A stretch of DNA of 64,000 nt, from contig CAWDZM010000001.1 in the NCBI GenBank assembly GCA_963807165.1, positions 32,214-96,213 on the forward strand. Direction: 5' to 3'. Numbering within the stretch: position 1 is the stretch's first letter; each line of letters opens with the position of its first letter. Below the pieces are notes generated by a model. It saw only the letters and a program-made list of their open reading frames with translations. It was not told the DNA's origin and searched no databases. Of this stretch, positions 3,701 to 64,000 are shown one piece after another. A program made the position numbers and the translations under genes. Origin of the DNA: an uncultured bacterium. GTDB lineage: Bacteria > Patescibacteriota > Minisyncoccia > UBA6257 > 2-01-FULL-56-20.

Positions 3701-3879
3701 GCCCAGCCACTTAACTTTGACCCCCTAATAAGCTCTATCTTAAAGGACTTTTCATATTCCCGAAAGAGAGGTTTGGCTAGCTCTAATTGGAAATGAGAAA
3801 ATCAAAAGATAATAAATTTACCAAGCTTGGAGATGGAAATACTGAAATTACTCGGTATTTTGCGCTATAATATCCCCAC

Positions 3880-5413
3880 ATGCTCCAATCCACCGCCCTA
3901 GCCCTGCTCAAAACGGGCGAGAACGTATTCCTGACCGGCGCGCCGGGCGCGGGGAAGACGTACGTCCTCAATCAATATATCGATTTCCTGAACCAGTACG
4001 AGGTGGAGGCGGCCGTCACGGCGTACACCGGGATCGCGGCGAGCCACATCAACGGGCGGACGCTCCATTCGTGGGCGGGGCTGACGCGCGGGCCGATGCA
4101 CGAGGACGCGCAGGAGGTGGATCGCGTGCGGGCGAATGAGTATCCTGACCGACCGCATCCGCCGCGCGCGGGTGCTTATTATAGACGAGATCAGCATGCT
4201 GCATCCCGCGCAGTTCGATCGCGTGGATCTGATCTGCCGCACCGCGCGGAATTCGCACGAGCCGTTCGGCGGATTACAGCTCATCTGTTGCGGCGATTTC
4301 TTTCAGATCCCGCCGGTGAACGGCGAGAGTGAAAAGTTTGTGATCGACTCCGTCGCGTGGAAGAACGCGGACATGCGCGTGTGTTATCTGACGGAACAGC
4401 ATCGGCAGGCGGGTGCCGTCGATGGGAGCGGTGTTTCAAGCAGCGGCGAACTCTTAGAGATTCTGGACGCCATCCGCGCGGGCGCCGTGACGCCGGCGGT
4501 CGTTGCCGCGCTCGACGCGCGTATCGGAGCGGCGATCGATGCGCCGATCGGCATCGCGCGACTCTACACCCATCGCGAGAATGTGGATGAGATCAACGCC
4601 GCGGAACTGCGCAAGCTCGCGACACCGGACGTCGTCTACGACGCGTACCAGAGCGGCCCCGCGGCGCTCGTCGAAAAATTAAAAAAAGATAACGACGTGC
4701 CGGACAAATTCGTTTTAAAGATCGGCGCGCGCGTGATGTTTACCAAAAATAATATGGGCGCGGGATACGTGAACGGCACACTCGGCGAAGTGATCGGGTT
4801 TGAGAACGGGGGAGATGGGAACAACGGCGAGTCGGTGGGTAAAAATGCCGCTGGTGCACCAATGCCGCAAACCGCCACCGAAGCGAACCCCGTCATTATG
4901 ACGTTTGATAAAAAGAAAATAACCCCAGGCCGCTTTCAGTGGAAAGTGGAGGAAGGCGGCAAAGTACGCGCGAGCGTTTCCCAGCTGCCGCTCAAACTCG
5001 CGTGGGCGATCACCGTGCACAAGAGCCAGGGGATGACGCTCGACGCCGCCGTGATCGACCTTGGCCGCGCCTTCGACCGCGGCATGGGCTATGTGGCGCT
5101 CTCGCGCGTGCGCGAGCTTAAGAACATCTCCTTGATAGGCTTCAACGCCGTTGCTCTGCAAGTGAGCCCGCGCGTGCAATCGCTCGACGCCGGCTTCCGC
5201 GCCTCCTCGCGGCGCGCAGAGGACGACATTGCCGCGCTCCCCGCCGACGAACTGCGCGCCGCGCAGAGCGAGTTCATCCGCCGCGCGGGCGAGGAGTCGG
5301 GCCCGAAAGGCCATTCTGCGACAGCCGGCCATGAGGCCGGGGCCGGCACTGTCTTTGACGACCTGCGCATTGACTACACCGACATCGACGAAATGCCCGT
5401 GGCGGATTTTTGA
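3880..5413 (+). CDS. PIF1/RecD-like superfamily 1 helicase, split by a +1 frameshift near 4125-4140
   Basis: Walker A GAPGAGKT. Motif II LIIDEISM and GGLQLICCGDFFQIPPV sit in the second frame. C-terminal ITVHKSQG and GYVALSRV motifs. GC-rich. Two track ORFs (3880-4332 and 4136-5413) join into one helicase. Confidence 0.7.
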
Positions 5414-5454
5414 GGCCAGGCCGGCTTTTTAGATAGTTTTAATGCAGCATCTGC

Positions 5455-5460
5455 TACTAT
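5455..5460 (+). promoter_or_regulatory. TACTAT -10-like hexamer 6 nt upstream of ATG 5467
   Basis: Same -10/6-nt/ATG geometry as the other instances. Confidence 0.3.
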
Positions 5461-5466
5461 CGCAGG

Positions 5467-5853
5467 ATGGAGAAAGATTTTTCGAAATGGCACGACTTTA
5501 AAAGTAAACTTCAAAAGATCGACAAAAGATTCTATTTTCAAGAACGGGGTATTTGGCTCTGCTCAGTGGGGTTAAATCTTGGCCACGAAGAGGATGGGAA
5601 ACGAGATCAATTTTTAAGACCAGTTATTGTTTTTAAAAAATTTGATGACGATACTTTTTGGGGCATTCCGCTAACGAGTCAAGTGCACGGAGGCGTTCGC
5701 TACTTCCAATTTTTATTTGGTAATCGTATTGCGGTTGCAATGCTATCTCAGATGCGTCTTTTTGATAGAAAACGCTTTATCCGTAGGATCGGCGAAATGT
5801 CCAACTCAGAATTTGATAGATTAAAATCGCAATTGCGCAACATGATGCAATAA
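5467..5853 (+). CDS. MazF/PemK-family endoribonuclease toxin-like protein
   Basis: Aligns to MazF: RGIWLCSVGLNLGHEEDGKRDQFLRPVIVF...GIPLTSQ versus GDLIWVDFDPTKGSEQAGHRPAVVLSP...CVPCTTQ. 128 aa. Confidence 0.6.
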   Translation: MEKDFSKWHDFKSKLQKIDKRFYFQERGIWLCSVGLNLGHEEDGKRDQFLRPVIVFKKFDDDTFWGIPLTSQVHGGVRYFQFLFGNRIAVAMLSQMRLFDRKRFIRRIGEMSNSEFDRLKSQLRNMMQ

Positions 5854-5858
5854 AAAAC

Positions 5859-5886
5859 GGAACCCCTTCTGAAAAGAAGGGGTTCC
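5859..5886. terminator. perfect 11-bp GC-rich hairpin (GGAACCCCTTC / GAAGGGGTTCC) just after mazF-like gene
   Basis: Inverted repeat seen directly. The A-run lies on the upstream side only, so the plus-strand U-tract is weak. Confidence 0.4.
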
Positions 5887-6096
5887 TCGGAGGCCAAAAG
5901 GCCAAAGAGTCGTTCGGAACCCTCACATTGAGATTCCTCGGAGGCCGAAGCCAAAATGGATCCCATGATCCTGTTATTATTCTACTCAAAGCGATTTACT
6001 CGTCAAATCTTTTTTAATAAATATTTAATGTGCAATAAGGTATGATTACCGTAAGGTCGTCGAACCCTAAATCCTAAAATAAAAAATAATACTATT

Positions 6097-6216
6097 ATGG
6101 CACAAGACGAAGATGTGGATGTAAACGAAGAATTGGAGCACGAGGTTGAGGCAGAGGACATCGAGGCCAACACGGACGACACGCCGACGGATGACAACGG
6201 CGACGCAAAGGAATAG
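6097..6216 (+). CDS. possible 39-aa highly acidic peptide upstream of the YggU-like gene
   Basis: ATG...TAG ORF, MAQDEDVDVNEELEHEVEAEDIEANTDDTPTDDNGDAKE. Below the ORF-track size cutoff. Speculative. Confidence 0.15.
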   Translation: MAQDEDVDVNEELEHEVEAEDIEANTDDTPTDDNGDAKE

Positions 6217-6222
6217 TGCGAG

Positions 6223-6462
6223 ATGAAGATCTTTGTGCGTGCAAAGCCTGGCGTCAAAAAAGAATATATAAAAGAGACGACCGATCTTTTTGAAAAGTCC
6301 GGCGAGCGGCATTTTGTGGTGGCGGTTGCTGCGCGTGCGGTGGACGGAAGGGCGAATCGCGCGATCGAAAAAGCGCTCGCGGAACATTTTAATGTGCCGC
6401 CGTCTCGCGTGCGGATTGTTTCTGGGCAAACGACAAAGGAAAAAATTGTAGAAATCGGATAA
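6223..6462 (+). CDS. YggU/DUF167 (UPF0235) family protein
   Basis: 79 aa. The AARAVDGRANRAIEKALAEHFNVPPSRVRIVSG pattern matches the DUF167 consensus. Confidence 0.65.
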   Translation: MKIFVRAKPGVKKEYIKETTDLFEKSGERHFVVAVAARAVDGRANRAIEKALAEHFNVPPSRVRIVSGQTTKEKIVEIG

Positions 6463-6737
6463 ATAAAAGCGGCGGCACGATGGTTGGTCGTGTCGCCGAT
6501 GTTCTTTATGCGGCCTTGGCCTTCGGTGACGGAGAAGGTCTTTTAGGTAAAAAATTATTTATCAGCGTTGTTTGGAGCCTGAAGGATTCCTCCGGGGCGA
6601 ATAGCGCTTGAGGGCCATCATCGCCACGGTAGAATTGACGATGCTGTTCCGACACGGATAACGGATTTTCTGACGATGTGATTCTCATCGCGTGCCTCCA
6701 ATCCCTTTCTACTTTCAGTATATCACTTGTGGTGTTG

Positions 6738-6743
6738 TATAAT
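6738..6743 (+). promoter_or_regulatory. TATAAT -10 hexamer 7 nt upstream of gpsA ATG 6751 (leaderless-type)
   Basis: Exact hexamer. No Shine-Dalgarno sequence. Confidence 0.4.
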
Positions 6744-6750
6744 AGTAGCT

Positions 6751-7656
6751 ATGGATACTTCAACCCGCGTGGTGATCATCGGCGCCGGAGAACTTGGCAA
6801 GGCAATCGGTGGCTTGATCGTAAAGAAAGGCGCTGGCGTGGATCTTTGGGACGCGAATCCGGCGGTGGTGCCGGGGCAGAAGCCGCTCGCAGAGATCGTC
6901 CCGCTTGCGCACTATGTGTTCTTTTGCGTCCCTTCGTGGGCGATGCGCGATGCGGTGGTCAGCGTGGTGCCGTATCTTTCGCCGCAAGCGGCGGTGTTTT
7001 CCTTTGCAAAGGGGATAGAGAAATATTCCTTCCAGACGATGGCGGAGGTGGTGCCGGCGCTCTTGCCGCCGACCCAGCCGTTTGTGGTGGTGGGCGGACC
7101 GATGCTCGCGGAGGAGATCAACGTCGGCAAGCGCGCGATCGGCGTTTTTGCATCGCCTGACGCCGCCGCGCGCGAATCCGCGCGCGAGCTCTTTACCGGC
7201 GATCGTTTCCATGTGGAAACCTCCGAGGACGCGCCGGGTGTCGCGCTCGCGGGTGTCCTTAAGAATATTTATGCGGTTGCGCTCGGCATTGCGGACGGGT
7301 TAGAGCTCTCCGGCAACGAGAAAGGCTGGCTGACCGGCCGCGCGATCTCCGAGATGCGCGATATCGCCGGAGTGATGGGCGTCGAGAAGGATACGATATT
7401 GGGCGCCGCGGGAGTGGGGGATTTTATCGCAACCGGATACAGCGTGCATTCACGCAATCATCAAACGGGCGTTGAGATCGTGGCGACGGGAAAGTGCGAC
7501 ATCCGTGGCGAGGGACTGACCGCGCTCCCGTTCCTCATTGAACGCTTAGGAAAGGAAAAAGCGGCGACGTTTGCGTTGCTTATGCTGGTGAATACGATTG
7601 GGATCGAGTGCAAACCGGCGCGCGAAGCATTCGAAGCGTTCTTCGCCGCCCGCTAA
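6751..7656 (+). CDS. gpsA: NAD(P)H-dependent glycerol-3-phosphate dehydrogenase
   Basis: N-terminal VVIIGAGELGKA Rossmann motif. GpsA-like core. The Met at 6751 is preferred over the track start at 6727. Confidence 0.8.
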   Translation: MDTSTRVVIIGAGELGKAIGGLIVKKGAGVDLWDANPAVVPGQKPLAEIVPLAHYVFFCVPSWAMRDAVVSVVPYLSPQAAVFSFAKGIEKYSFQTMAEVVPALLPPTQPFVVVGGPMLAEEINVGKRAIGVFASPDAAARESARELFTGDRFHVETSEDAPGVALAGVLKNIYAVALGIADGLELSGNEKGWLTGRAISEMRDIAGVMGVEKDTILGAAGVGDFIATGYSVHSRNHQTGVEIVATGKCDIRGEGLTALPFLIERLGKEKAATFALLMLVNTIGIECKPAREAFEAFFAAR

Positions 7657-30216: not shown

Positions 30217-30221
30217 AGGTA

Positions 30222-30263
30222 AAAACAAAAGCCCCACCTTTTAAAAGGTGGGGCTTTTGTTTT
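30222..30263 (+). terminator. intrinsic terminator (AAAACAAAAGCCCCACC-TTTTAAAA-GGTGGGGCTTTTGTTTT)
   Basis: 17-bp arms plus T-run. Shares the GCCCCACC/GGTGGGGC arms with the hairpin at 35549-35670. Confidence 0.7.
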
Positions 30264-30291
30264 TGTATACTTTTAAAGTACACTACAGAAA

Positions 30292-33457: not shown

Positions 33458-34077
33458 TTAGACACCTCTCCGGCTTTTGCAGGATGGATAGCCCCAATGA
33501 TGTAGATCAGCATCATCATTCCATGCGAAGAGTGAGGGCGCGCCGTCGCTGAAGATAGACACGCTCGGCCTGCTCCCTGAGCCATAACGTGAACCGCCAA
33601 GAAGTTTGTTGCAGTTCAGGCTCGTGAGGATATGGGAAAAGGTGATGCAGTGGATGATCCCTTCGTAAACAGTGATCGGCGATCGATTCAATTCGCAGAT
33701 TTTCGATTCGCTGATGCGAGGTTCCATGCCCAGATATTCCCTACCGTCGTTGATACTACACAAGAGGTAGGTTTCCTTTGGGGTGGTAACCACATCCGTG
33801 AGAAGCATTGGGTCGAGCCGGTTCTTCCCTTTCTTGCCATTCACCTCTATCAATTCCATGAGGTGATCGAGATCGAATCCATGGCCATGGCGGGGAGGAA
33901 TGATGCTAAAGAGGCCATCGGGGATATCCTTCCGGAAAGGATCGGCATCCTGATAGCGAATAAGCCCTGCGACGAAGAGTGTCTCCACTTCTTCATCGAA
34001 GAGTTCCTTTTTGTCCGACCGTATTTGAAGTGCCCGATATTGCTTCGCGCTGATATGTTCTGTCATGGGCATTGCGA
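33458..34077 (-). CDS. hypothetical protein (track ORF trimmed to the internal Met; start uncertain)
   Basis: The track ORF 33458-34330 would overlap the xseA start. A RHGHGFDLDH motif of unknown family. Confidence 0.3.
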
Positions 34078-43714: not shown

Positions 43715-45226
43715 ATGAAACGCTTCTTTGAGATGCTGCCAGGGATATTGGCGTGGCTCACCCTCATTTTTATGGTGCTTTTTTCGTGGCTCCTGCCGGT
43801 GTGGGTATCTATTTTTATTATCCTGTTCGATATCTATTGGGTGCTGAAGACGGTGTATCTCTCGTTGCACCTCCGCGCGACGTTCGTCGAAATGCGTCGC
43901 GTGATGAAGATCGATTGGCTGGCGAAGATCCGCGAAGAGATGCCGGCGGCGGCTGATGGCGCCCCCGTGACCCACCCAGCGCTCGACGAAATTTATCACC
44001 TCGTCATTTTGCCGATGTACGACGAGCCGTTCGAGGTGGTGCGCGAAAGTTTTGCGTCGCTCACGCGCGTCAATTACGATGCGAAAAAATTATTGGTGGT
44101 GCTCGCGCTGGAGAACAAGGCAGGGGATGCGGCGTGCGCGACAGGCGTAAAGCTTCAACACGAATTTGGCGCAGCGTTTGGGAAATTTTTAGTGACGCAT
44201 CATCCGGCGGGATTGCCAGATGAGATTCCGGGCAAGGGTTCAAACGAGGTCTGGGCGGGACAACAGGCGATGCGCGAGATCATAAACATCCCGCCGGAAC
44301 ATATATTGGTGTCCGTGTTCGACAGCGATACGCAGGTCTTCCCGGAATATTTCAGCCGGCTCACGTATGTTTTCCTAAAGGCAGAGAACCGCACGCATGC
44401 GATCTATCAACCGATCCCACTCTTCACGAATAACGTCTACGAAGCGCCGATGCTTGCGCGCGTCGTCGCGTTCAGCACGACGTTCTGGCAGATGATGCAG
44501 CAGTCGCGCCCGGAGCGACTGACATCGTTCTCATCACAATCCATTCCGCTCAGCACCCTGCTCGACATCGGGTGGTGGGATAAGACGATCGTGTCGGAGG
44601 ACTCGCGCATTTTCTGGCAGGGATATTTAAAATATCACAGCGACTTCCGCGTGGAGCCGCTCTTCTATCCCGTCTCGATGGACGTGAACGTTGCGCCCAC
44701 GTTCTGGGGTACGATGATTAATATTTATAAACAGCAGCGGCGCTGGGGCTGGGGCGTTGAAAATATTCCGTACATGTTGGAGGGATTCCGGCATGATCCG
44801 CAGATCCCGGAAAGCAAAAAAAGATATTGGACGTTCAACGCGATCGAAGGATTTCATTCATGGGCCACGAACTCGCTGATCATTTTTGCATTGGGTTGGT
44901 TGCCGCTCGCGCTCGGCGGTCGTCACTTCGGCCACTCCGTGCTCTCGTACAACCTGCCCCACATCACGCGATTCATCGTCTCGCTCTCGATGGTTGGTGT
45001 CGCAAGCTCCGCAATCCTCAGTATATTTCTTTTACCCAAGCCACCCGGCGGACTGAAGGCAAAAGATTATTTAATATTTGTTTTGCAGTGGGTGCTGATG
45101 CCGTTCACGCTGATCATTTTTGGCGCATTCCCCGGGCTGGAGGCACAGACGCGGCTGATGCTCGGCGGGCGGTGGCGACTTGGCTTTTGGGTGACGCCGA
45201 AGGGGCGCTATCAAAAAGTCAATTGA
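43715..45226 (+). CDS. family 2 glycosyltransferase (cellulose/chitin-synthase-like), integral membrane
   Basis: D,D,D and QQRRW (QxxRW) motifs. N- and C-terminal TM helices. Confidence 0.75.
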   Translation: MKRFFEMLPGILAWLTLIFMVLFSWLLPVWVSIFIILFDIYWVLKTVYLSLHLRATFVEMRRVMKIDWLAKIREEMPAAADGAPVTHPALDEIYHLVILPMYDEPFEVVRESFASLTRVNYDAKKLLVVLALENKAGDAACATGVKLQHEFGAAFGKFLVTHHPAGLPDEIPGKGSNEVWAGQQAMREIINIPPEHILVSVFDSDTQVFPEYFSRLTYVFLKAENRTHAIYQPIPLFTNNVYEAPMLARVVAFSTTFWQMMQQSRPERLTSFSSQSIPLSTLLDIGWWDKTIVSEDSRIFWQGYLKYHSDFRVEPLFYPVSMDVNVAPTFWGTMINIYKQQRRWGWGVENIPYMLEGFRHDPQIPESKKRYWTFNAIEGFHSWATNSLIIFALGWLPLALGGRHFGHSVLSYNLPHITRFIVSLSMVGVASSAILSIFLLPKPPGGLKAKDYLIFVLQWVLMPFTLIIFGAFPGLEAQTRLMLGGRWRLGFWVTPKGRYQKVN

Positions 45227-45303
45227 TCATGTTCCACTGTTAATCTGGCAAACAGAGCTCACTCAGCAGACAGTAGAGCCCTTCTTTATGGATGTAATAT
45301 AAT

Positions 45304-45346
45304 ATCAGTATTTTAAAATCACAAATTGTGATTTTAAAATACTGAT
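45304..45346. repeat. 43-bp near-perfect palindrome ATCAGTATTTTAAAATCACAA-A-TTGTGATTTTAAAATACTGAT; copy A
   Basis: Exact reverse-complement arms seen directly. Lies between convergent glycosyltransferase and recG. Confidence 0.6.
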
Positions 45347-45414
45347 CTATCGCTGTTTCTTTACGTTACGCCTTTAGTGAGCGCAGAGCGTAGTGCTCGT
45401 ATCTCGCATCTCTA

Positions 45415-47681
45415 CTATTCCTGATGCACTCGCGCCCTGAACTCCTCCACCTTCTTTCGTAGCGCCAGATTCTTTTTGAACTGCGGATCCGCGGTGACGG
45501 CTTGGATCGCCGCTTCGCGCGAGTGTTTGACGAGCTCCGGATCGCGGAGCGCTTCCATCGCGACGTCGGGGAGTCCGGTTTGCACGTTGCCGAAGAATTG
45601 TCCGGGGCCGCGGAGGGCGAGATCTTTTTCTGCGAGCTCGAAACCGTTCTTGGCTTCGAGGATCGCTTTGAGGCGCGCGTTCGCGGCGGCGGCTTGCGAG
45701 TCAGCCATCAAAAAACAATATGACTGATATTCGCCGCGCCCGACACGGCCACGGAATTGGTAGAGCTGTGCGAGGCCGAAACGGTCTGCGCCTTCGATCA
45801 TCATAATGCTCGCGTTCGGCACGTCCACGCCGACTTCGACGACGGATGTGGCGACGAGGAGGTCGAACTCGCGATCTTTGAACTTACGCATTACTTCTTC
45901 TTTTTCCTTCGGCTTCATTTGGCCGTGGAGCATCGCGATGCGAAGGTCGGGAAAAATCTTTTGCGAAAGTTTTTCATATTCTTCTTTAACAGACTTAAGC
46001 TCGAGTTTTTTGACGAATGCCATCTTGCCGCCCGGCACTTTTGTTGACTCCTCTTCCTCCGGCACGTCAATACGCGGACAGATGACAAACGCCTGGCGGC
46101 CTTCCTTTATTTGCTCACGAATAAAATTATACGTGGCGGTGCGCTTGAGTGGCGCAACAATTTCCGTCTTGATCTCCTTGCGTCCGACGGGCAGCTCGGT
46201 GATGAGTGATAGGTCGAGATCGCCGAACACGGAGAGCATCAGTGTACGCGGGATCGGCGTGGCGGACATGCTGAGGAAGTGGGGGATCGGCGCGGAGCCG
46301 TTGCCATTCACGCCGCCTTTCCGGGCGTTCGCGTTCAGTTCCGCCCGCTGGCGCACGCCGAACCGGTGTTGCTCGTCTATTATTACGAGCCCGAGCGACG
46401 CGAACGCGATCGTTTTTTGGATGAGCGCGTGCGTGCCGAAGATGATTGAGATTTCCCCGTCAGCGACTTTCTTTGAAAACTCCAGCTTGGAAATTTTCGA
46501 TTCCAATGCTTTGCCGTAAAAAACGTGCGCGCTACTGCCGGTGATGAGCCCGATGACGGACTGCTCATCACCAAGCGCAAGCGTCGCGAACAACTTCTTC
46601 ATCGTTTCGAAATGCTGCCGTGCCAGAATTTCCGTCGGTGCCATGAACGCGGTTTGCAGTTTGTTCTCCGCGGCGATGAGTGCCGCGATCGCGGCCACCA
46701 CCGTTTTCCCCGAGCCGACGTCTCCCTGTAGGAGCCGGTTCATCGGCCGCGGCTTGTCGATATCTTTGATAATTTCCCAGAGCGATTGTTTCTGCGAATG
46801 CGTGAGCTCGAAGGGCAATCGAGCGAGCATCGCTTTCACGCGTTCGATGTCGGCAGTGATCGACCGGCGCGCGCTCGGTGGCAAGCTTCATCTTTTGTTG
46901 CATGTTCAAAATTTGGAGCAAAAACAATTCCTCAAACGAGAACCGAGCGCGCGCCGCGGCGGCATCCTCGATCCGGCGGGGGAAATGCATGGAGTGGATC
47001 GCCTCATTCAATTCCGGAAAATGAAATTCCGTTAAAATTTCGGCGGGGATCCATTCTTTCATCACCGGTTTTTTGCGGAACAGCGCTTGCGTGACGAACC
47101 GGATCCCGCGCGAGGTGAGTCCGCGGGTCTCGGGATACACCGGCACGAGCCGCGCGGTGTGGTTCATCTCCTGCACGCCATTCTCGCCGTCCGCGCTCCG
47201 CAGGCGGATCACTTCGTAAACCGGATTGCTAAAATATATTTCGCCTTCTTCGTTGACCGACGCCTTCCCGGCAAAGTTCGCCGCGCGCCCGGTCTTTAAA
47301 ACATTTGCCACATATGGTTGGTTGAACCACACCGCGCGGATGGATCCCGATTCGTCCGCGATCGTCGCTTCGACGATGCTCATCGCGCGGCGCCAACTGC
47401 GCTTGGTCTGCACTTCTTCCACGATGCCCTGGATCGTGGCTTGCTGTCCGGGCTCAAGCTCGGCGATGGAATAAATTTTAGCTGAAGTCTTCGTAGCGAG
47501 TGGGGAAGTGCCACAACAGATCGCGCACGGTCTTGATGCCCATCTTTTCAAGACGGCGCAGAGCGGGGACGCGGGCTCCCACAACTTCAAAAAGTGGAGT
47601 GTCCGAGGCTATCTGAAGCATTTGATTGTGCATAGTATACCATATCCAATCCAAGAGTGCAGTTTTTATAGCACTTGACAA
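45415..47681 (-). CDS. recG: ATP-dependent DNA helicase RecG, split into three frames (shifts near 47480-47500 and 46860-46900)
   Basis: N-terminus HFPTRYED (ORF 47478-47681). Wedge domain (46568-47590). Helicase motifs GDVGSGKT and DEQHRFG (45415-46884). Confidence 0.8.
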
Positions 47682-48932: not shown

Positions 48933-48951
48933 GCGATGCGTTTTTATCTTG

Positions 48952-49024
48952 TGCCCCCACGAGGATTCGAACCTCGGACCATCTCCTTAAGAGGGAGTTG
49001 CTCTACCAACTGAGCTATAGGGGC
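48952..49024 (-). tRNA. tRNA-Lys (anticodon CTT)
   Basis: Acceptor GCCCCTA/TGGGGGC, D-arm GCTC-AGTTGGTA-GAGC, loop CTCTTAA, T-arm CGAGG-TTCGAAT-CCTCG. Confidence 0.85.
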
Positions 49025-49153
49025 AATATCAAAGTTATTCTATTAAGGATATGCAAAAAATGCAATCGGGAAGCTAGCTTGTTTTGATATTGCCGGCACG
49101 ATGGGTTTTCATGTCGCTTGCGCTGTTTCTCTAATACCATAGGGTTTCGCTAT

Positions 49154-49184
49154 ATTCTGAAATCACAAATTGTGATTTCAGAAT
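49154..49184. repeat. 31-bp palindrome ATTCTGAAATCACAA-A-TTGTGATTTCAGAAT; copy B
   Basis: Shares the core AAATCACAAATTGTGATTT with copy A. Outer arms covary. Confidence 0.6.
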
Positions 49185-49418
49185 GCTGGATTTGGCTGAT
49201 TAAATTGAAATTCACCTCAACTGTTTCTAACCTCATAGGGCTGGGCGGAAGTTGCAATTTGCGCGACGTCAATGTTGTCGACGTCTCTTGCGAGCAGCAA
49301 GTTCTCGTGTTGCACCATACATTCGTGCCGCAAAACCACCGCCGATTTGAAAGGGGATATTGTGGTCTTGTAGGATATTTATAATCCAGCAGAATGCCGC
49401 TTCAGTATCTTTCATGGG

Positions 49419-49490
49419 TGCCCCCGCCAGGAGTTGAACCCAGACTTCATGGTTCGAAGCCATGCGTGATATCCGTTTCACTACGAGGGC
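49419..49490 (-). tRNA. tRNA-Arg (anticodon TCG)
   Basis: Acceptor GCCCTCG/CGGGGGC, D-arm GTGA-AACGGATA-TCAC, anticodon stem CATGG/CCATG, loop CTTCGAA. T-stem has two wobble pairs. Confidence 0.7.
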
Positions 49491-49526
49491 AAATGTTCTC
49501 TACGCTCTAATGCTACAATTATCTGT

Positions 49527-54511: not shown

Positions 54512-54584
54512 GCCCTCGTGGTCCAATGGATAGGGCGTCTCGCTTCTAGCGAGTACGATGCGGGTTCAACTCCTGCCGAGGGCG
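54512..54584 (+). tRNA. tRNA-Arg (anticodon TCT)
   Basis: Acceptor GCCCTCG/CGAGGGC, D-arm GTCC-AATGGATA-GGGC, loop CTTCTAG, T-arm GCGGG-TTCAACT-CCTGC. Confidence 0.8.
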
Positions 54585-54611
54585 CGGATTCTGAAAGTGA
54601 GTATAAAATAT

Positions 54612-54640
54612 AAAGACGTCTATAAAAAATAGACGTCTTT
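54612..54640. terminator. bidirectional terminator AAAGACGTCTA-TAAAAAA-TAGACGTCTTT
   Basis: Perfect 11-bp inverted repeat between the tRNA-Arg (+) and GIY-YIG gene (-) 3' ends. Confidence 0.5.
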
Positions 54641-54656
54641 ATTATGTCCACCCTAC

Positions 54657-54944
54657 CTATCCGACTTTCTGGTTGCAAGAAGGCCGAAGCTCAAGAATTA
54701 ATTCTTTTTCTCGATTCGATGGATCTCCCGATATAACTTCGCCAACCCAATGCGTGGGTATCTCCCGAGTTATATACTGGTTATCTCCATTCAAGTGAGC
54801 CAGTAGTCGCGTGCGGATATCTCCCTTACCAACATAGACCCACCTTCCTTGCTTAAAGAGACCGTACACGCCATTTTGATTTAGGTTTAGCGCTTCAATA
54901 TCTTGACGGCTAAAAGCTCGTGGCGTTTGTTGAATAAATGACAT
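54657..54944 (-). CDS. standalone GIY-YIG nuclease-domain protein (YhbQ/UPF0213-like)
   Basis: GVYGLFKQGRWVYVGKGDIRTRLLAHL gives GIY...YIG plus the conserved Arg. Glu in REKELI. Low GC. Confidence 0.65.
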   Translation of the reverse strand: MSFIQQTPRAFSRQDIEALNLNQNGVYGLFKQGRWVYVGKGDIRTRLLAHLNGDNQYITREIPTHWVGEVISGDPSNREKELILELRPSCNQKVG

Positions 54945-55203
54945 ATATCTTTTTATGGTGAATATGATCGACCTTTTGTTATTCGTAGGTGTTACAATAA
55001 TTGATCTAATATTAGCCCCTTATTATTGTATGTCAAGCTTGTCAAGTGTTCAATAATGTTTATACTAAAAGATGAAGATTTGGCGCTAGTATGAAAGAAG
55101 TCTATTTTAATAAGGACTATAAGCATTTGGCGGAATATTAAAAAATGATAAAAACTAAATAGACAGACATATATTTCCCCCGTAAGATTACTATAAATAA
55201 AAA

Positions 55204-55986
55204 ATGCCAAGTTTCAACGATCTAAAATTGGAGGATTGGAAAAATTCAGAAATCTGGACCGATAGTCTCTGGATTATTTCTGAAAGAGATAAAAGCGGGA
55301 AACACGATGGGTTTTACCACGGGAATTTTGTCCCTCAAATTCCTCGTCAATTAATTTCTCGCTATACAAAGGAAAATGAAGTTGTATTTGATCCATTTGT
55401 AGGAAGTGGTACAACCGCTTACGAAGCCGAAGAGCTGGGTAGACATTTTATCGGGGTAGATATCCAATCCAAGTTGATTAAATATATTAGAGAGAAAGTT
55501 GATGACAAGAAGTTTTTTTCAGAATTGATTGTTGGTGATAGTTCAGATGAAAACATTATCTCTACGATTTCTGATATTTTAAAAAAGAAGAAGAAAAGAA
55601 GTATTCACTTTGCGATATTGCATCCACCGTATGCCAATATCATTAAATTTAGCAATAACAAAGCAGATTTATCCAACGCAAAATCATTAAAGGATTTTCT
55701 CGATAGATTTTCTCTAGTTGTTAAGAATACGGTTTCTTTATTAGAAAAAAATCGATATTTAGCGGTCGTTATTGGGGATAAATATCAACAAGGGCAGTGG
55801 GTTCCGCTCGGTTTTTACTGCTTAAATGAGGTGCAGAAGCAAGGATTAACTTTAAAGAGTATAATTATAAAGAATATGGAAGGGAATAGGGGGAAGCAAA
55901 ATAAGGAGGGCATCTGGCGCTATCGAGCGCTATCGAGCGATTACTATATTTTTAAGCACGAATATATTTTTATATTTAAGAATTAA
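55204..55986 (+). CDS. N6-adenine/N4-cytosine DNA methyltransferase with permuted motif order (FxGxG before DPPY-like)
   Basis: Motif I FDPFVGSGTTAYEAEELGRHFIGVDI at residues ~70-95. Motif IV ILHPPY at ~136. Low GC. Confidence 0.7.
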   Translation: MPSFNDLKLEDWKNSEIWTDSLWIISERDKSGKHDGFYHGNFVPQIPRQLISRYTKENEVVFDPFVGSGTTAYEAEELGRHFIGVDIQSKLIKYIREKVDDKKFFSELIVGDSSDENIISTISDILKKKKKRSIHFAILHPPYANIIKFSNNKADLSNAKSLKDFLDRFSLVVKNTVSLLEKNRYLAVVIGDKYQQGQWVPLGFYCLNEVQKQGLTLKSIIIKNMEGNRGKQNKEGIWRYRALSSDYYIFKHEYIFIFKN

Positions 55987-55990
55987 AGTC

Positions 55991-56896
55991 GTGAGCGATA
56001 TCAAGGATCAATTGTCGGTGGTACTAGCGAAAAAGATTTTTGGAAATTCCAAGGTTGCGTTGGAATATTTAAAGCGACTGAATACTATCAAGGAAATTAA
56101 TGGCATCACAAGTAGAACTCTTACGCGCGGAGTTCGTGTGGGGTTGGAGGTGCTGGGTATCAATGCAGATAAAGATATCTGGCAAATAGTTGTTGAAAGC
56201 TGGGACTATGAATCTAGCAAAAAGATTATTCGAGGTATATTTAAGGAGGGAAATAAGTATAGGGTGGGAGTGGAAGCGGATGTGGCGATGGGAATTCTTA
56301 TTAAAGAGTGGGAAGCGTTGAGTTTGGGTAAAATCGAATGGCCATTCTCTCAGGGGGATTTTGATGGCTTTGTTCAGGGAATTAATAATTCTAGTAATGA
56401 ACTTGGGGTAATTAAGGATGAAAAAGTAAAAGCGGCGGCGGTGAAATATCGAAGAATTAAAGAAATTAATACTGTCAGAAACGATTTTATAGAGACTTTG
56501 ATTTTTGAAAAAAATGAAAATATTATTCCGACTCTAAGCCATCGAAGGGGAGTCGACTTCTTTATCGACGGAGTTCCTTTTGACCAAAAAGTTGCAAAAA
56601 GTCCAACAAATCAATTTAAAGTAAAATTCGGTGATGATTGGAAAAATGAGGCAATAAAAAATCCAGCATTAGTTGCTGAATATTTATATAAATATCAAGA
56701 CGAGGGTCGTTTCGGTGCTGATCCGCGCTTGCTTGTCGTTTATTTAGATGAAGATATTTCCATACAAAAAATTAGAGAAATTTTAGGGAAGATTGACCTT
56801 AGTGATCCTATGGAAATTCAATTTGAATTTAGCCACGAAGTCGGAGGGGCCAAAAACTATAAAACAAAATGTTTTGTAATACTGCTTCATAATTAA
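55991..56896 (+). CDS. putative type II restriction endonuclease (PD-(D/E)xK-like) between two methyltransferase genes
   Basis: Position within the R-M cassette. Candidate catalytic stretch RRGVDFFIDGVPFDQKVAK (D...D.K). GTG start. Confidence 0.35.
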   Translation: MSDIKDQLSVVLAKKIFGNSKVALEYLKRLNTIKEINGITSRTLTRGVRVGLEVLGINADKDIWQIVVESWDYESSKKIIRGIFKEGNKYRVGVEADVAMGILIKEWEALSLGKIEWPFSQGDFDGFVQGINNSSNELGVIKDEKVKAAAVKYRRIKEINTVRNDFIETLIFEKNENIIPTLSHRRGVDFFIDGVPFDQKVAKSPTNQFKVKFGDDWKNEAIKNPALVAEYLYKYQDEGRFGADPRLLVVYLDEDISIQKIREILGKIDLSDPMEIQFEFSHEVGGAKNYKTKCFVILLHN

Positions 56897-56906
56897 CACA
56901 CAATAT

Positions 56907-57974
56907 ATGAACTATATCGGGAGTAAATTATCTCTACTAAATTTTTTAGAAACATCCATCGATTCTGTTACCAAGGGAGAGCAGAAGACATTTTTAGATC
57001 TTTTTGCTGGCACCGGTGCGGTTGGTCTCCATTTTAAAAAGAAGGGGTACAAAGTCTATGCTAACGATTTGCAATATTATAGCTTTGTTTTAAATCGCCA
57101 TTATATAGGTAATCATAAGGAAATGGAGTTTGAGGGATTAGCAAATATAATCCCAGGAATAACGAGTGCTAAAAAGAGCGATAAAAAAAATCTTGTGTGT
57201 GAGTATTTGGGTTCGATAAAAGGAACAAAAGGATTTATTTATAAGAACTATTGTCCGGGAGGCACGGTCAATAGTTCGGTCCAGAGATTATATTTTTCAG
57301 ATGAAAATGGAATGAAATGCGATTCAATCAGGCAGAAAATTGAACAATGGAAAAAGAAATTACAGATTACAGATAATGAATATTACTTTCTTCTCGCTTC
57401 ATTATTAGAATCGATCGATAAACATGCTAATACCGCATCGGTCTACGGTGCTTTTTTAAAAAAAATAAAGAAGTCGGCTCTTAGGCCAGTCGTTTTAAAG
57501 CCAGCGAATTTATTTATTAATGACCATGAACATAAAGTGTTTAATGAAAATATAAATACTTTGGTAAAAAAAGTAAGCGGAGATATTTTATATCTTGATC
57601 CGCCATATAACCAGAGACAATATGCGACCAATTATCATATACTTGAAACTATCGCAAGATACGATAATCCTAAAATTCACGGTAAGACAGGATTGAGAGA
57701 TTATAAATCTCAAAAGTCTTTATACTCTTCGCGTCCCCAGGTTAAAAAAGCTTTTAGAGAACTTATATCAAACGCAAAAGTTAAATATATCTTTTTGAGC
57801 TATAACAACGAAGGGTTAATGACTATGCAAGATATAAAAGAGATTATGGGCACGAGAGGGGAATATGGTTTCTTTGCTCAGAAATATGGGCGTTTTAAAG
57901 CCGATAAAGATTCAAACCGGGGATACAAAGATAATAAAACAACTGAATATCTCCACTATGTTGTTTGTAAATAA
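56907..57974 (+). CDS. Dam-like (alpha-class) N6-adenine DNA methyltransferase
   Basis: MNYIGSKLSLL...FLDLFAGTGAVG N-terminus (motif X/I) and ILYLDPPYN motif IV, the D12-class architecture. Confidence 0.8.
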   Translation: MNYIGSKLSLLNFLETSIDSVTKGEQKTFLDLFAGTGAVGLHFKKKGYKVYANDLQYYSFVLNRHYIGNHKEMEFEGLANIIPGITSAKKSDKKNLVCEYLGSIKGTKGFIYKNYCPGGTVNSSVQRLYFSDENGMKCDSIRQKIEQWKKKLQITDNEYYFLLASLLESIDKHANTASVYGAFLKKIKKSALRPVVLKPANLFINDHEHKVFNENINTLVKKVSGDILYLDPPYNQRQYATNYHILETIARYDNPKIHGKTGLRDYKSQKSLYSSRPQVKKAFRELISNAKVKYIFLSYNNEGLMTMQDIKEIMGTRGEYGFFAQKYGRFKADKDSNRGYKDNKTTEYLHYVVCK

Positions 57975-58196
57975 AAAGAGTATCCTGGATCTGACTTTTT
58001 CCGCGCACTTGATGTTGTAGGCGCTAGTAATATAATTTATTCGTTCCTTGAAAGCTGACGGGGATTGGCTTGGGCCCTTCTTTTATTCTTGGACTAAATC
58101 TCCTTTATCCCCCCTCGGTAGTCGCTTCTGGCGATTGCCGCGGGGGCTGGTATAAAGGTTGAACAGTCCCGAGTAATAAACTAATCCTAAGCGACC

Positions 58197-58373
58197 ATGG
58201 CTAAACCTATTGTTGTAAAGACGGGTGGTAAGGTTCCGGTTTCGGGGCAGTACCGTCCGTCAGGCGGGAAAACGGAGGGCACCTTCACAAAAGGTGAACG
58301 CGTTCCGCCGAACAACGTTGGCGTGCGTCAATCTTGGACTTTGGTCGACAAGACCAAACACAAGGGCGACTAA
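58197..58373 (+). CDS. possible 58-aa small protein (GC-rich, Gly/Lys-rich)
   Basis: ATG...TAA ORF, MAKPIVVKTGGKVPVSGQYRPSGGKTEGTFTKGERVPPNNVGVRQSWTLVDKTKHKGD. Below the track size cutoff. Confidence 0.2.
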   Translation: MAKPIVVKTGGKVPVSGQYRPSGGKTEGTFTKGERVPPNNVGVRQSWTLVDKTKHKGD

Positions 58374-58645
58374 TCGCTAGCGTACCTCCTCGTCAGCTTT
58401 TAGGGAATATTTTATTTTTTCCACAGTCGTCTGTGCTACACTGATTCTACAACCGAATAGCCCATCAAGAGAGTGGAGATGCTAAGGGATCTGGCCCGAT
58501 GCTCCGCCCGCAACCGATCGACGATTCGACACGGTGCGAAATCCAACCCTTCACGGGGAAGATGCTTCTTTATCTCAACTGCCGTGTAGGCGGTTGTTTT
58601 TTTGCTCTTTTGCCGGCTGGAGATTAAAACCTTATTAAAAGAGTT

Positions 58646-58674
58646 TTGACTTTGGTGCTGGGCGGGCGGACAAT
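58646..58674 (+). promoter_or_regulatory. sigma70-like promoter TTGACT-17 nt-GACAAT, 6 nt upstream of ATG 58681
   Basis: -35 at 58646-58651 and -10 at 58669-58674. Leaderless geometry. Confidence 0.4.
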
Positions 58675-58680
58675 GATGCT

Positions 58681-59538
58681 ATGGCAAAGAAAAAAGCGAA
58701 GCAGAATACTCATCCAACGATCTTTGAAGAGAAAGAGGTTCGAAGGGTGTGGCGTAACGAAAAGTGGTATTTCTCTGTTTCTGACGTGGTGCAGGCGCTG
58801 ACCGATTCGAATGATGTGCGGCAGTATATAAAAAAGATGAGAACGCGTGATGCGGAGCTGTCTCGCAACTGGGGTACAATTTGTACCCTGGTTCAAATAA
58901 CCTCAAAAGATGGTAAAAAGCACGAGGAAAATATGTCGGATATTGAAGGCATCTTCCGTATCATTCAATCTATCCCTTCCCCGAAGGCCGAGCCATTTAA
59001 GCGTTGGCTTGCCAAAGTTGGCAAAGAAAGAATCGAGGAAATAGCGGATCCTGAGTTGGCGGTGACGCGGGCTAAAGAGATCTACGACAAAAAGGGATAT
59101 CCCAAAGATTGGGTTGATAAGCGCATGCGTGGCATTGCCGTTCGGAATACGCTTACCGACGAATGGAAATCGCGGGGAGCGTCGATGCGTTTTGAGTTTG
59201 CGATTTTAACCGACGAGATTTACAAGGCGGCGTTCGATAAAACCGCGAAAGAATACATGAAGCATAAGGGCTTGGATAAAAAAGCGGGTGATAATTTGCG
59301 CGACCATATGGGCGACATCGAATTGATCCTGACGATGCTTGGAGAAGCTACGACAACCAAGCTCAGCACGGAAAAGGATTCGCATGGATTGGAAGCGTTA
59401 AAGAAAGATGCACGCGTCGGGGGAAGCGTTGCCGGCAGGACTCGAAAAGATATCGAACAGCAAACGGGCAAAAAGGTAATTTCAAACGAAAATTTTAAGA
59501 ATAAGAAGCTTCTGAAAGGTAAAAAAATTCGCAAATAA
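58681..59538 (+). CDS. Bro-N-domain protein (phage antirepressor/DinD-like)
   Basis: YFSVSDVVQALT...IPSPKAEPFKRWLAKVGKERIEE matches the Bro-N consensus. The C-terminus resembles DinD. Confidence 0.65.
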   Translation: MAKKKAKQNTHPTIFEEKEVRRVWRNEKWYFSVSDVVQALTDSNDVRQYIKKMRTRDAELSRNWGTICTLVQITSKDGKKHEENMSDIEGIFRIIQSIPSPKAEPFKRWLAKVGKERIEEIADPELAVTRAKEIYDKKGYPKDWVDKRMRGIAVRNTLTDEWKSRGASMRFEFAILTDEIYKAAFDKTAKEYMKHKGLDKKAGDNLRDHMGDIELILTMLGEATTTKLSTEKDSHGLEALKKDARVGGSVAGRTRKDIEQQTGKKVISNENFKNKKLLKGKKIRK

Positions 59539-62326: not shown

Positions 62327-62344
62327 GCGGTATTTTCTGAAGCA

Positions 62345-62380
62345 GCGGCCGTCGATACTATCGATGGCCGCTTTTCTTTT
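62345..62380 (+). terminator. intrinsic terminator (13-bp stem GCGGCCGTCGATA...TATCGATGGCCGC plus T-run)
   Basis: Seen directly. Followed by a TTGACA-17 nt-TACAAT promoter (62400-62428) for tuf. Confidence 0.6.
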
Positions 62381-62567: not shown

Positions 62568-63767
62568 ATGGCAGAAAAAGAAAAGTTCGACCGGTCCAAG
62601 CCGCACCTTAACGTAGGTACGATTGGCCACGTCGATCATGGCAAGACCACGTTGACCGCAGCGATCACCCACGTGCTCTTTATGAAGGGCTGGATCAAAA
62701 AAGAAGAGAATGTTTCACAGATCGACAATGCTCCGGAAGAGAAGGCGCGTGGTATCACCATTGCGTTGCATCACTCGGAGTACAACTCGGAGAAGCGCCA
62801 CTACGCGCACGTTGATGCTCCGGGTCACGCCGATTACATCAAGAACATGATCACCGGTGCCGCCCAGATGGACGGTGCAGTGCTCGTCGTTGCAGCGACC
62901 GACGGCCCGATGCCGCAGACCCGCGAGCACATTTTGCTCGCCCGTCAGGTAGGCGTGCCTTCGATCATCGTGTTCCTCAACAAGTGCGACATGGTGGATG
63001 ATCCGGAATTGATCGACCTCGTGGAGTCCGAAGTTCGTGAGCTCCTCACGAAGAACGGCTTCCCAGGCGACACTGCTCCGGTGATCCGCGGTTCGGCGCT
63101 CAAGGCGTTGAACTCGACCGATGCTGATTCCGCAGATGCCAAGCCGATCCTTGACCTCGTCAAGGCGATGGACGACTTCTTCCCGGATCCGGTTCGTGAA
63201 CTCGACAAGCCGTTCCTTATGCCTGTTGAAGATATCTTCTCGATCGAAGGTCGCGGTACGGTCGTCACGGGACGCATCGAGCGCGGCATCATCAAGGTGA
63301 ACGATGAAATCGAAGTCGTCGGCCTTAAGCCGACCGCAAAGACCGTCGTCACCGGTATCGAAATGTTCAACAAGAGCTTGGATCAGGGCCAGGCAGGCGA
63401 TAACGCAGGTTTGCTTCTCCGCGGTCTCAAGAAAGAGGACGTAGAGCGCGGACAGGTGTTGGCCAAGCCGGGCACGGTGACCCCGCACTCGGAGTTCGAG
63501 GGCGAGATCTACGTGCTCTCGAAAGAAGAGGGTGGCCGTCACTCTCCGTTCTTCAAGGGCTACAAGCCGCAATTCTATATCCGTACCACGGACGTGACCG
63601 GAGAGGTTACGCTTCCGGAAGGAATGGAAATGGTCATGCCGGGTGATACCGTCAAGATCACCGTCAAGCTCATCACCCCGGTCGCTTTGGAAGACAAGAT
63701 GCGTTTCGCCATCCGCGAGGGCGGCAAGACCGTCGGCGCCGGCGTCGTGACGAAGATCATCAAGTAG
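62568..63767 (+). CDS. tuf: elongation factor Tu
   Basis: [18 protein letters not shown] and NKCD motifs. 399 aa. Confidence 0.95.
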
Positions 63768-63872
63768 CAATATAAAACCGCCTTACGGGGACGGGTCGCG
63801 TTCTACTGAACGCGCTCTAACGCTCGGCACCTACGTGCCTCCGCGATTCCCCTTAAAGGCGGTTTTATATTG
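63768..63872. repeat. GC-rich 71-nt element (63785-63855) in the loop of a 17-bp AT-rich hairpin right after the tuf stop; copy 3, same orientation as copy 2
   Basis: Arms CAATATAAAACCGCCTT / AAGGCGGTTTTATATTG. Insert starts CGGGGACGGGTCGCGTTC and ends TCCGCGATTCCCCT, similar to the ends of copy 2. Confidence 0.5.
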
Positions 63873-63972
63873 CTTATATTTTTAATGTTCAGTCACGACG
63901 CCGGCGTCTCTGGAGATATGAGGAGGGATCAGACTAAGGTCGCATTTCAGAAGAATATAGAATCTTGTTACA

Positions 63973-64000
63973 TTCTAAAATCGCAATCTGTGATTTTAGA
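63973..64000. repeat. palindrome TTCTAAAATCGCAATCTGTGATTTTAGA; copy C, possibly cut by the window end
   Basis: Same AAATC(A/G)CAA..TGTGATTT core as copies A and B. Confidence 0.45.

Follow-up and report, generated by a model that had tools for sequence, protein, structure and literature searches.

The closest described counterparts of the palindromes considered here are the repetitive extragenic palindromic (REP) sequences and bacterial interspersed mosaic elements (BIMEs) of E. coli and Pseudomonas, with their REP-associated tyrosine transposases (RAYTs), and the miniature inverted-repeat transposable elements (MITEs) and other solo relics of mobile genes. A further point of reference is ORF6N (PF10543), which is part of the Bro/KilA-N network of small DNA-binding proteins associated with phages and mobile elements; to our knowledge this domain, which is very common in phages, plasmids and chromosomes, is without assigned function. 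The present analysis concerned three palindromes in a stretch of 64,000 nucleotides (the window) of contig CAWDZM010000001.1, from a small, Paceibacteria-like genome of an uncultured patescibacterium with ~52% GC. These palindromes are read, at a probability of roughly 0.55, as the surviving cores of decayed ORF6N genes that would serve as hairpin or cruciform cis sites tied to an ORF6N protein.

Copy A (45304-45346) is a perfect palindrome of 21+1+21 nt with the core AAATCACAAATTGTGATTT, and copy B (49154-49184) is a perfect palindrome of 15+1+15 nt with the same core. Copy C (63973-64000) is cut by the end of the window, within which the first 7 bases of its right arm are visible, and its core AAATCGCAATCTGTGATTT differs by three substitutions from that of A and B, with one G.U and one A.C on the + strand. 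A search for the 19-nt core with up to three mismatches returned just these three sites, as compared to 0.01 matches expected by chance (100 shuffles of the window), and a looser scan with five mismatches gave nothing credible beyond them. The positions and the common core reported in a preliminary description of the window were therefore confirmed, and the palindromy noted for A proved to be perfect. The outer arms vary among copies with complementarity kept (TTTTAAAA, TTCTGAAA, TTCTAAAA). Predicted RNA hairpins of the palindromes spanned -18 to -24 kcal/mol (z, -6 to -10); the values were -23 to -24 kcal/mol for both strands of A (z near -9) and -18 to -20 kcal/mol for B. Outside the palindromes the half-site alone was not over-represented in the window, indicating a palindrome family and not an uptake-sequence-like word; a USS/DUS-like uptake sequence was ruled out on this basis. 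The three palindromes are a genuine, related repeat family. DNA alignment of A, B and C revealed no visible similarity past ~16 nt from the centre and no longer repeat unit common to the three copies, and a blastn-short search with the flanks was empty. An Rfam 15 scan of the window and 16 ORF6N or solo loci detected tRNAs and one unrelated PGK motif only.

The palindrome inside ORF6N genes

The core was searched for in 185,579 genomes, one per species, using the pattern AAATCACAANTTGTGATTT. At least 120 loci carried the core, ranging from Acidobacteriota to Lachnospiraceae and Saccharibacteria and from 26 to 68% GC. Among the matches listed, the palindrome lay in frame within a long open reading frame (ORF) with ORF6N hallmarks at 71 of 121 sites. 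These ORFs read ..FMFQLT.EE..NLKSQ[IF]VISSWGG..PYAFTEQG.., and example genes matched PF10543 with an E of about 1e-33. The sequence cttgAAATCACAAnTTGTGATTTcaagttggggcgg translates as N-L-K-S-Q-[I/F]-V-I-S-S-W-G-G, the 19-nt core encoding L-K-S-Q-[I/F]-V-I-S in ORF6N-domain genes of many phyla. The 31 nt AACTTGAAATCACAA-N-TTGTGATTTCAAGTT constitute a perfect palindrome, the reverse complement of which encodes the same peptide with I and F swapped. Near-match variants were mostly symmetric (e.g. AAGTCACAAnTTGTGACTT, encoding KSQFVTS, ATATCACAAnTTGTGATAT and AGATCACAAnTTGTGATCT), and two-mismatch variants in the same loci were symmetric in 8 of 14 cases as compared to an expectation of ~2%.

Pairing was also examined in two samples of unselected genes: ORF6N genes of viral contigs, obtained with protein patterns located outside the palindrome (i.e. 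[RH]FPx[DWE]..F[QK] and P[YRS][AV][FL]T[ED][QY]G), and 'bystander' ORF6N genes in fetched loci that lacked the search pattern. These genes exhibited 8-15 paired positions of 15 in the arms (mean 12.5) as compared to 6.4 in a null derived from synonymous-codon resampling at locus GC, with p<0.03 for 22 of 23 genes. Across 93 unique genes, arm positions 1-13 were paired in at least 87% and positions 14-15 in 60-66%, with background levels beyond position 15. The stem within ORF6N genes is thus 13-15 bp, contained in ~31 nt with the translation N-L-K-S-Q-[I/F]-V-[I/T]-S-S, and only the apex CAA-N-TTG is invariant. Both arms had changed jointly in the peptide variants RFQFGSL, RCQFGTL, IFQIGIS, RLQNGAS and RFQFETA. 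The DNA was still paired in genes encoding SLRFQFGSLKR (tctttaagattccaa-t-ttggaagcttaaaaa), FVRCQFGTLKR (tttgtaaggtgccaa-t-ttggcaccttaaaga), HLRFQFETANN (catttgcggtttcaa-t-ttgaaaccgcaaata) and ALRSQIAILKR (gctttaagatcgcaa-a-ttgcgatcttaaaga). Pairing beyond the synonymous-codon null, together with peptide changes that keep pairing, argues for a nucleotide-level constraint, and the palindrome in intact ORF6N genes is clearly under selection at that level. As an instance of nucleic-acid structure imposing on protein sequence across phyla, this is unusually clear.

An intact ORF6N protein of 137 aa, P0131 (..ALKSQIVILKH.., PF10543 E 2e-24), was found with an ORF6N query from the candidate phyla radiation (CPR). 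In an AlphaFold model of P0131 (mean pLDDT, i.e. predicted local distance difference test score, of 80), the segment encoded by the palindrome (residues 70-79) belongs to the part of the domain with the lowest confidence (pLDDT 63), and the model fits a permissive loop that would tolerate the nucleotide constraint. A Foldseek comparison of the same model with the PDB gave Dachshund-homology (Ski/DACH) winged-helix-like DNA-binding domains as best matches (template modelling score about 0.55 on target, probability 0.8-0.9, E about 0.2-0.5), which hints weakly at a related fold. Nothing matching ORF6N proteins was found among solved structures or in NCBIfam, and annotated phage and plasmid collections contained few matches, labelled just 'ORF6N domain-containing protein'. 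The ORF6N literature that was found names the domain in passing only, and the motif itself occurred just in one irrelevant CRISPRfinder table. No account of a hairpin inside ORF6N coding sequence was found in the searched literature (motif, domain name) or in Rfam 15, in which the conserved base-paired element appears to be undescribed; nothing relevant on KilA-N palindromes was found in the searched literature.

The window copies and intact ORF6N genes

Metagenomes were scanned with a pattern tailored to the window copies, and the matches comprised two sets, i.e. intact CPR ORF6N genes and contigs syntenic with the window. Intact genes on the CPR-like contigs L149, L159, L164 and L208 read ..FQLNAAEFSALKSQFVISKYNNTRRSLPYAFSEQGVVILS.., and the 19-27-nt cores of A and B were identical to those of intact ORF6N genes, L159 carrying the TCTGAAATCACAAATTGTGATTTCAGA of window copy B. 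Copy A lies within a 188-bp spacer in which a GT2 glycosyltransferase gene (43715-45226, +) converges on recG (45415-47590, -). The whole of this spacer (45227-45414, +) constitutes an ORF6N relic: the A(+) frame reads ..KSQIVILKY*SIAVSLRYAFSERRA*, with a spacing equal to that of KSQFVISKYNNTRRSLPYAFSEQGV in intact genes, and its SLRYAFSE corresponds to the SLPYAFSE of those genes. Copy B is located between the genes for tRNA-Lys (48951-49024, -) and tRNA-Arg (49415-49491, -), within a relic (49146-49265, -) that is co-oriented with both and reads ..SAKSSILKSQFVISEYSET... Copy C is found 210 nt past tuf (62568-63767) and the long hairpin of tuf, and the probable relic around it (63927-63995, +) is co-oriented with tuf (FQKNIESCYILKSQSVIL vs FQLNAAEFSALKSQFVIS). 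These gene contexts were as previously described for the three copies. Each relic has the orientation of its upstream host gene (i.e. the glycosyltransferase, tRNA-Arg and tuf), in-frame stops flank every palindrome on both sides, and every relic has retained the central palindrome and lost both gene ends.

Flanking sequences, trimmed of the core and of the adjoining 6 nt to its left and right, were aligned to intact CPR ORF6N genes and compared with 300 shuffles. The right flank of A(+) scored above 300 of 300 shuffles against L149, L164 and L208, and the left flank gave a p of about 0.03. Similarly, the 5' flank of B(-) scored above 300 of 300 shuffles. In the opposite orientations, the flanks of A and B exhibited no match beyond shuffles; the flank of C was not significant (p 0.54). 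This signal was seen just against intact ORF6N genes and not among A, B and C. A six-frame scan of the whole window with the ORF6N hidden Markov model (HMM), with stops masked, placed A(+), C(+) and B(-) as the top three matches at 11.5, 8.4 and 6.3 bits, respectively. Score ranges were 11.5-15 bits for A+ as compared to 2.6-5.4 for A-, and 6.3-9.2 for B-; the C(+) match, second best in the window, spanned HMM positions 46-68 with a domain E of 0.042. Masking of the palindrome with X removed the anchor of these matches, and no flank then scored significantly (best A+, E 0.057). No intact ORF6N gene was detected in the 64-kb window. As non-palindrome sequence around A and B still resembles intact ORF6N genes of related genomes, these copies are shown, at the level of sequence comparison, to be relics of ORF6N genes.

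An intact gene is very probably still encoded in the window genome, with a palindrome of the A type, because the records for P0131 and for P0001, a protein 100% identical to the window glycosyltransferase, agree: both were recorded on a 726,381-bp contig from the same sources. A relative contig, Ga0335072_10000010, combines the intact gene L159 with the solo copy L155. An intact ORF6N gene was also observed, co-directional between rpsG and fusA of the str operon, in two other CPR lineages, L009 (Saccharibacteria, 6719-7271) and L176 (8656-9202). The same slot in L217 holds a solo palindrome alone (~11651), and in the window it is a 318-bp spacer with a small hydrophobic ORF. The L217 solo copy and window copy B, which are at different loci, are nearly identical over ~25 flanking nt.

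The sequence of events envisaged begins with ORF6N genes that would have inserted into intergenic spacers, co-oriented with the upstream host gene. The reading frame would then decay and the palindrome would persist, often in an extended form (21 nt per arm in A and 29 in L147). The palindrome would constitute a cis element that folds into a hairpin or cruciform and has a sequence-specific apex; recognition of a particular sequence is suggested by the invariance of this apex and of the proximal stem. An ORF6N protein encoded elsewhere in the genome would be the likely recogniser, and solo copies would be orphan, non-autonomous sites of this protein.

Solo copies, arrays and competing explanations

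Solo copies were detected in several relatives of the window. L155 contains a copy in the glycosyltransferase/recG spacer that is orthologous to A, two compensated arm substitutions apart, with flanks of ~55-60% identity. L144, L151 and L199 have a common solo copy between a PD-(D/E)XK nuclease gene and xseA with compensated arms (TTTG..CAAA vs TCTA..TAGA), and L125/L174 and L218 have a common copy between convergent genes with a canonical terminator ~50 nt away. At least two pattern matches were present on a 460-kb relative contig, as compared to three copies in the 64-kb window. In a gap-free alignment of 17 solo copies, those of the window and those of related genomes, the 19-nt core was invariant and 89.5% of cells were paired. 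Arm columns 15/35 were A-U in nine copies and G-C in eight with none unpaired, and columns 13/37 were U-A in 11, C-G in five and U-G in one. None of 500 shuffles reached the observed covariation score, in agreement with the covarying outer arms of the preliminary description. The search pattern had left its Y/R choices independent and hence did not itself create the pairing. In solo copies, the arms were often longer (19-21 nt) than those in genes (13-15 nt), the longest solo copy being a perfect 29+1+29 palindrome in L147 (353-411; CATGTCTGATGTACATTTTAAAATCACAA-T-...). All of the ~12 independent solo loci were located between convergent or co-directional genes and none between divergent genes.

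Conservation of these copies bears on whether they might be functionless relics, i.e. the slowest-decaying piece of an ORF6N gene, made symmetric and extended by template-switch correction and not by selection. Template switching at quasi-palindromes is an established mutational mechanism, and the lengthening of the arms once the coding constraint is gone (A, 21 nt; L147, 29 nt; genes, 13-15 nt) is as a symmetrising mutation predicts. The presence or absence of copies varies among close relatives, and no copy was linked to a consistent function of neighbouring genes. Against such an origin, the core is invariant in the 17 solo copies, the central palindrome is kept in every relic with both gene ends lost, and the palindrome in intact genes is clearly under selection. 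Within ortholog groups, palindromes were 74-90% identical and flanks 53-84%, ranges that overlap; the palindrome was more conserved than the flanks in most comparisons, clearly so in G1 (90% vs 53% and 60%), with G2c and G3 as exceptions. Arm-to-arm conversion would leave divergence between species unslowed, and template-switch correction cannot explain the invariant core or the retention of the same segment in every relic. Relics devoid of function are considered improbable, but they constitute, together with a role in RNA, the chief competitors of the favoured reading.

Similar palindromes were also present upstream of ORF6N genes of other phyla, at 0.43 per kb in the 400 bp preceding ORF6N domains as compared to 0.01 per kb elsewhere. 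Arrays were observed in L065, L119, L097 and L016, in each of which every palindrome is symmetric and unlike its neighbours. In L065 (Hanamia sp.), ~10 different ORF6N-type palindromes of 25-31 bp occupy 400 bp (3660-4080) upstream of an ORF6N gene (4070-4660). This unit sits between two ORFs (2636-3673 and 4663-7383) that look like the N- and C-terminal parts of a methionine synthase, as assigned by reading their sequences. L119 has four palindromes with a 55-bp spacing. The remaining two arrays are from rumen 'Bacterium' isolates of about 52% GC: L097 (1-340) consists of four tandem ~100-bp units, each with ccgtgAAGTCACAAnTTGTGACTTcacgg, and in L016 (2155-2565) two palindromes of the ccgtgAAGTCACAAnTTGTGACTTcacgg type, also in ~100-bp units, precede an ORF6N gene that holds a third. 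In the most far-reaching reading, ORF6N genes throughout bacteria and their phages would each form, with the 13-15-bp hairpin in the coding sequence of a permissive loop and with the upstream copies, a self-recognised regulatory or mobile unit of which the orphans would be non-autonomous derivatives; this extension is considered less likely than not.

The arrays provide an argument for a mobile palindrome of the REP or MITE kind, in which a ~30-45-nt single-stranded DNA hairpin would have been spread by a transposase-like enzyme and the association with ORF6N would be secondary. A spacing of ~45-110 bp (e.g. the ~10 copies in L065 and the four tandem units of L097) is too dense for relics of whole genes. 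The intergenic sites, covarying stems and presence/absence polymorphism are as in REP/BIME sequences, and the non-orthologous window B and L217 share their ~25-nt flank. This explanation is nevertheless judged very improbable, since the common flanks are ORF6N coding sequence and not transposon ends, and the palindrome belongs to the ORF6N domain itself, in which it is universally conserved, and is not inserted into it. In addition, no target-site duplication was visible at A, B or C, no transposase adjoined the arrays examined, and the GTAG-like tetranucleotide head that is a hallmark of REP sequences was absent from A, B, C and 14 solo copies of relatives.

The preliminary description had proposed that the palindromes might be AT-rich bidirectional terminators. 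The sequences did not support this proposal: no copy has a U-tract directly past the stem, and the stems are AT-rich (four G-C among the 20 pairs counted in A), with tails of CTATCGCT.. and ATTATATT.. for A and AGAATGCT.. for B. A terminator consensus scan listed the minus strand of A alone, with a weak tail. Canonical terminators with a GC-rich stem and a T-run are present elsewhere in the window, at 30221-30264 and 62344-62372 (the latter followed by TTTCTTTTTC), as well as beside some copies, and tuf has its own hairpin and T-run upstream of C. The element at 30221-30264 is a 44-nt perfect palindrome (AAAAACAAAAGCCCCACCTTTTAAAAGGTGGGGCTTTTGTTTTT) with a GC-rich stem between A and T runs; this is the canonical bidirectional terminator form of this genome, in contrast to A, B and C. 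The tuf hairpin (63770-63870; caatataaaaccgcc...ggcggttttatattg) is an imperfect structure of ~100 nt directly past the stop codon, with a T-rich run at its end, and is of unusual size for a terminator.

Other roles in RNA were also weighed. Transcribed in the 3' region of the upstream gene, the palindrome might protect the 3' end, serve as an RNase III-type processing site or terminate weakly without a U-tract, comparable to the stabilisation of upstream mRNA by REP hairpins in E. coli. The co-orientation of relics with upstream genes, the high predicted stability of the hairpins, the location of all observed solo copies downstream of a gene and the G.U retained by C on the tuf sense strand are consistent with such a role, and stem variation consists chiefly of transitions. 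On the sense strand, G.U pairs outnumbered A.C pairs by 30 to 15 in copies upstream of ORF6N genes, the reverse of the coding copies (14 G.U vs 35 A.C, in a sample biased by the search pattern). Conversely, stems without a U-tract and the occurrence of canonical GC-rich terminators, some adjoining copies, argue against such a role, and an ordinary stabilising hairpin needs no 19-nt core invariant across paralogous copies and phyla. The origin by gene insertion accounts equally for the intergenic position. An element acting at the RNA level is regarded as unlikely, though less so than functionless relics, and the palindromes may act as DNA (hairpin or cruciform) or as an RNA hairpin.

An operator for a dimeric protein had also been suggested, with particular reference to CRP. 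The CRP-type operator was rejected, as TCACA-AAT-TGTGA has its half-sites swapped and separated by 3 bp in comparison to TGTGA-N6-TCACA; the sites may yet be bound by a protein, with an ORF6N protein as the binder. Placement at promoters was not observed: A is located between convergent genes, C lies past tuf and its hairpin, and none of the ~12 solo loci is divergent. A promoter reading was likewise rejected, with nothing beyond weak AT-rich consensus matches inside A. The three sites could in principle be a regulon under an unrelated transcription factor that binds as a dimer (a CRP/FNR-like protein, one of the Fur-family 7-1-7 type or a local ArsR, TrmB or XRE protein), given a 9-1-9 palindrome like Fur-family boxes and pentamers that recall CRP half-sites. 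The CRP order and spacing are wrong for this, no promoter is present between the convergent genes at A, the symmetric differences between copies reach past a plausible contact region and the ORF6N origin explains the exact sequence, making such a regulon scarcely credible. Symmetric differences among copies in one genome or array point to intrastrand pairing and not a plain double-stranded operator, and a plain duplex operator thus appears unlikely.

Several observations weigh against the interpretation of the palindromes as ORF6N-derived cis sites. L121-L124, which are closer relatives, lack A and B and have no copy in 21 kb; in these loci, the glycosyltransferase gene and recG abut and the spacer of A is absent. 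The window in turn lacks the solo copy of L144, L151 and L199, its slot being occupied by a DUF5701 gene. Individual solo copies are therefore dispensable. The enrichment upstream of ORF6N genes is inflated by ascertainment, as loci were picked for having the motif, and no upstream copies were found at the protein-selected viral loci. The mixed G.U and A.C counts leave room for action at the RNA level, and template switching could give symmetric changes without selection. Assignment of C as an ORF6N relic is marginal on its sequence, and the co-residence of P0131 with the window is drawn solely from the matching 726,381-bp records and sources. Finally, the formation of a hairpin or cruciform in vivo, its binding by ORF6N and any effect on neighbour genes are inferred.

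Other features of the window were also noted. Close homologues of the glycosyltransferase number in the hundreds, and those with a name are from 'Candidatus Paceibacterota', 'Minisyncoccia' and 'Liptonbacteria'. The window recG consists of two overlapping frames (45415-46884 and 46568-47590, both within 45415-47590, -); in relatives it is one ORF of 717-757 aa, and L155 has both parts in a single frame. The split is due to either a frameshift (pseudogene) or a sequencing error. A low-GC island (54512-59538; 35-42% GC) is found directly past tRNA-Arg(tct) and contains an N6/N4 DNA methylase (55204-55986), an unassigned ORF of 301 aa (55991-56896), a Dam-like D12 methylase (56907-57974) and a Bro-N domain protein (58681-59538, +). 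The same tRNA in L217 lies just ~850 bp from the gene that in the window comes after the island; the island looks like an inserted restriction-modification element. ORF6N and the Bro-N protein are both members of the 'Bro network'. Homologues of the Bro-N protein with 44-53% identity were present in L120 (5005-5799), L244 (1324-2100) and L224 (1045-1185), within 1-2 kb of ORF6N palindromes; these are unrelated loci, fetched solely for the palindrome. In the window, the PD-(D/E)XK nuclease gene and xseA are separated by a spacer filled with the DUF5701 gene (202 aa; 33458-34066, -), and in L121 an unassigned ORF of 159-171 aa lies between tRNA-Lys and tRNA-Arg, the slot of copy B in the window. 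Both spacers appear to be insertion hot spots.

Comparison with known systems

Intrinsic terminators resemble the palindromes in forming a stable hairpin downstream of genes, as between the convergent genes at A, and differ from the present elements, whose stem is AT-rich and lacks a U-tract and whose core is kept among paralogous copies as well as across phyla. CRP/FNR operators and Fur-family 7-1-7 boxes share the dyad symmetry, the TGTGA/TCACA pentamers and, for Fur, Zur and PerR, an odd-centred 9-1-9 form. Here, however, the pentamers are reversed with a 3-bp spacing, the sequence is not that of Fur, Zur or PerR boxes and the symmetry extends over 15-29 bp per arm. In baculoviruses, hr palindromes lie by bro genes as arrays of ~30-bp imperfect palindromes bound by IE-1. 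These combine palindrome arrays with genes of the Bro/KilA-N network and may be considered a lead, but they belong to a eukaryotic virus, have another sequence and are not embedded in bro coding sequence. The Rickettsia palindromic elements (RPEs) provide a precedent for a translated palindrome coexisting with an open reading frame; RPEs insert into unrelated genes, whereas the palindrome of ORF6N is ancestral to a single protein domain and universal in it.

If the element and protein do form a self-recognising unit, then they would represent a new, undescribed class of protein/hairpin element in which the hairpin dictates the local amino-acid sequence. The base-paired element, with its upstream arrays and orphans, offers a testable handle on what ORF6N proteins recognise. 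For annotation, such short conserved palindromes in CPR and other genomes may be read as ORF6N relics and not as terminators or operators.

MITEs and solo relics of mobile genes are alike in that the cis-looking part alone persists, the genome probably still contains intact copies and site occupancy is polymorphic among relatives. They differ in that an internal coding-region palindrome is kept here and not terminal inverted repeats, and neither a transposase nor target-site duplications were found. The REP/BIME sequences and RAYTs share several features, namely intergenic, imperfect to perfect palindromes of 30-45 nt, often past the 3' ends of genes, with covarying stems, possible local arrays, strain-dependent presence and an associated gene for a trans-acting protein. 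The gene associated with the repeats at other loci is ORF6N, encoding a DNA-binding protein and not an HUH/Y1 transposase; the palindrome lies within this gene and the flanks of solo copies are derived from it. The solo copies hence behave most like REP elements or MITE-type derivatives, yet the REP hallmarks tested fail and the origin differs; the window copies themselves are small palindromic relic repeats.

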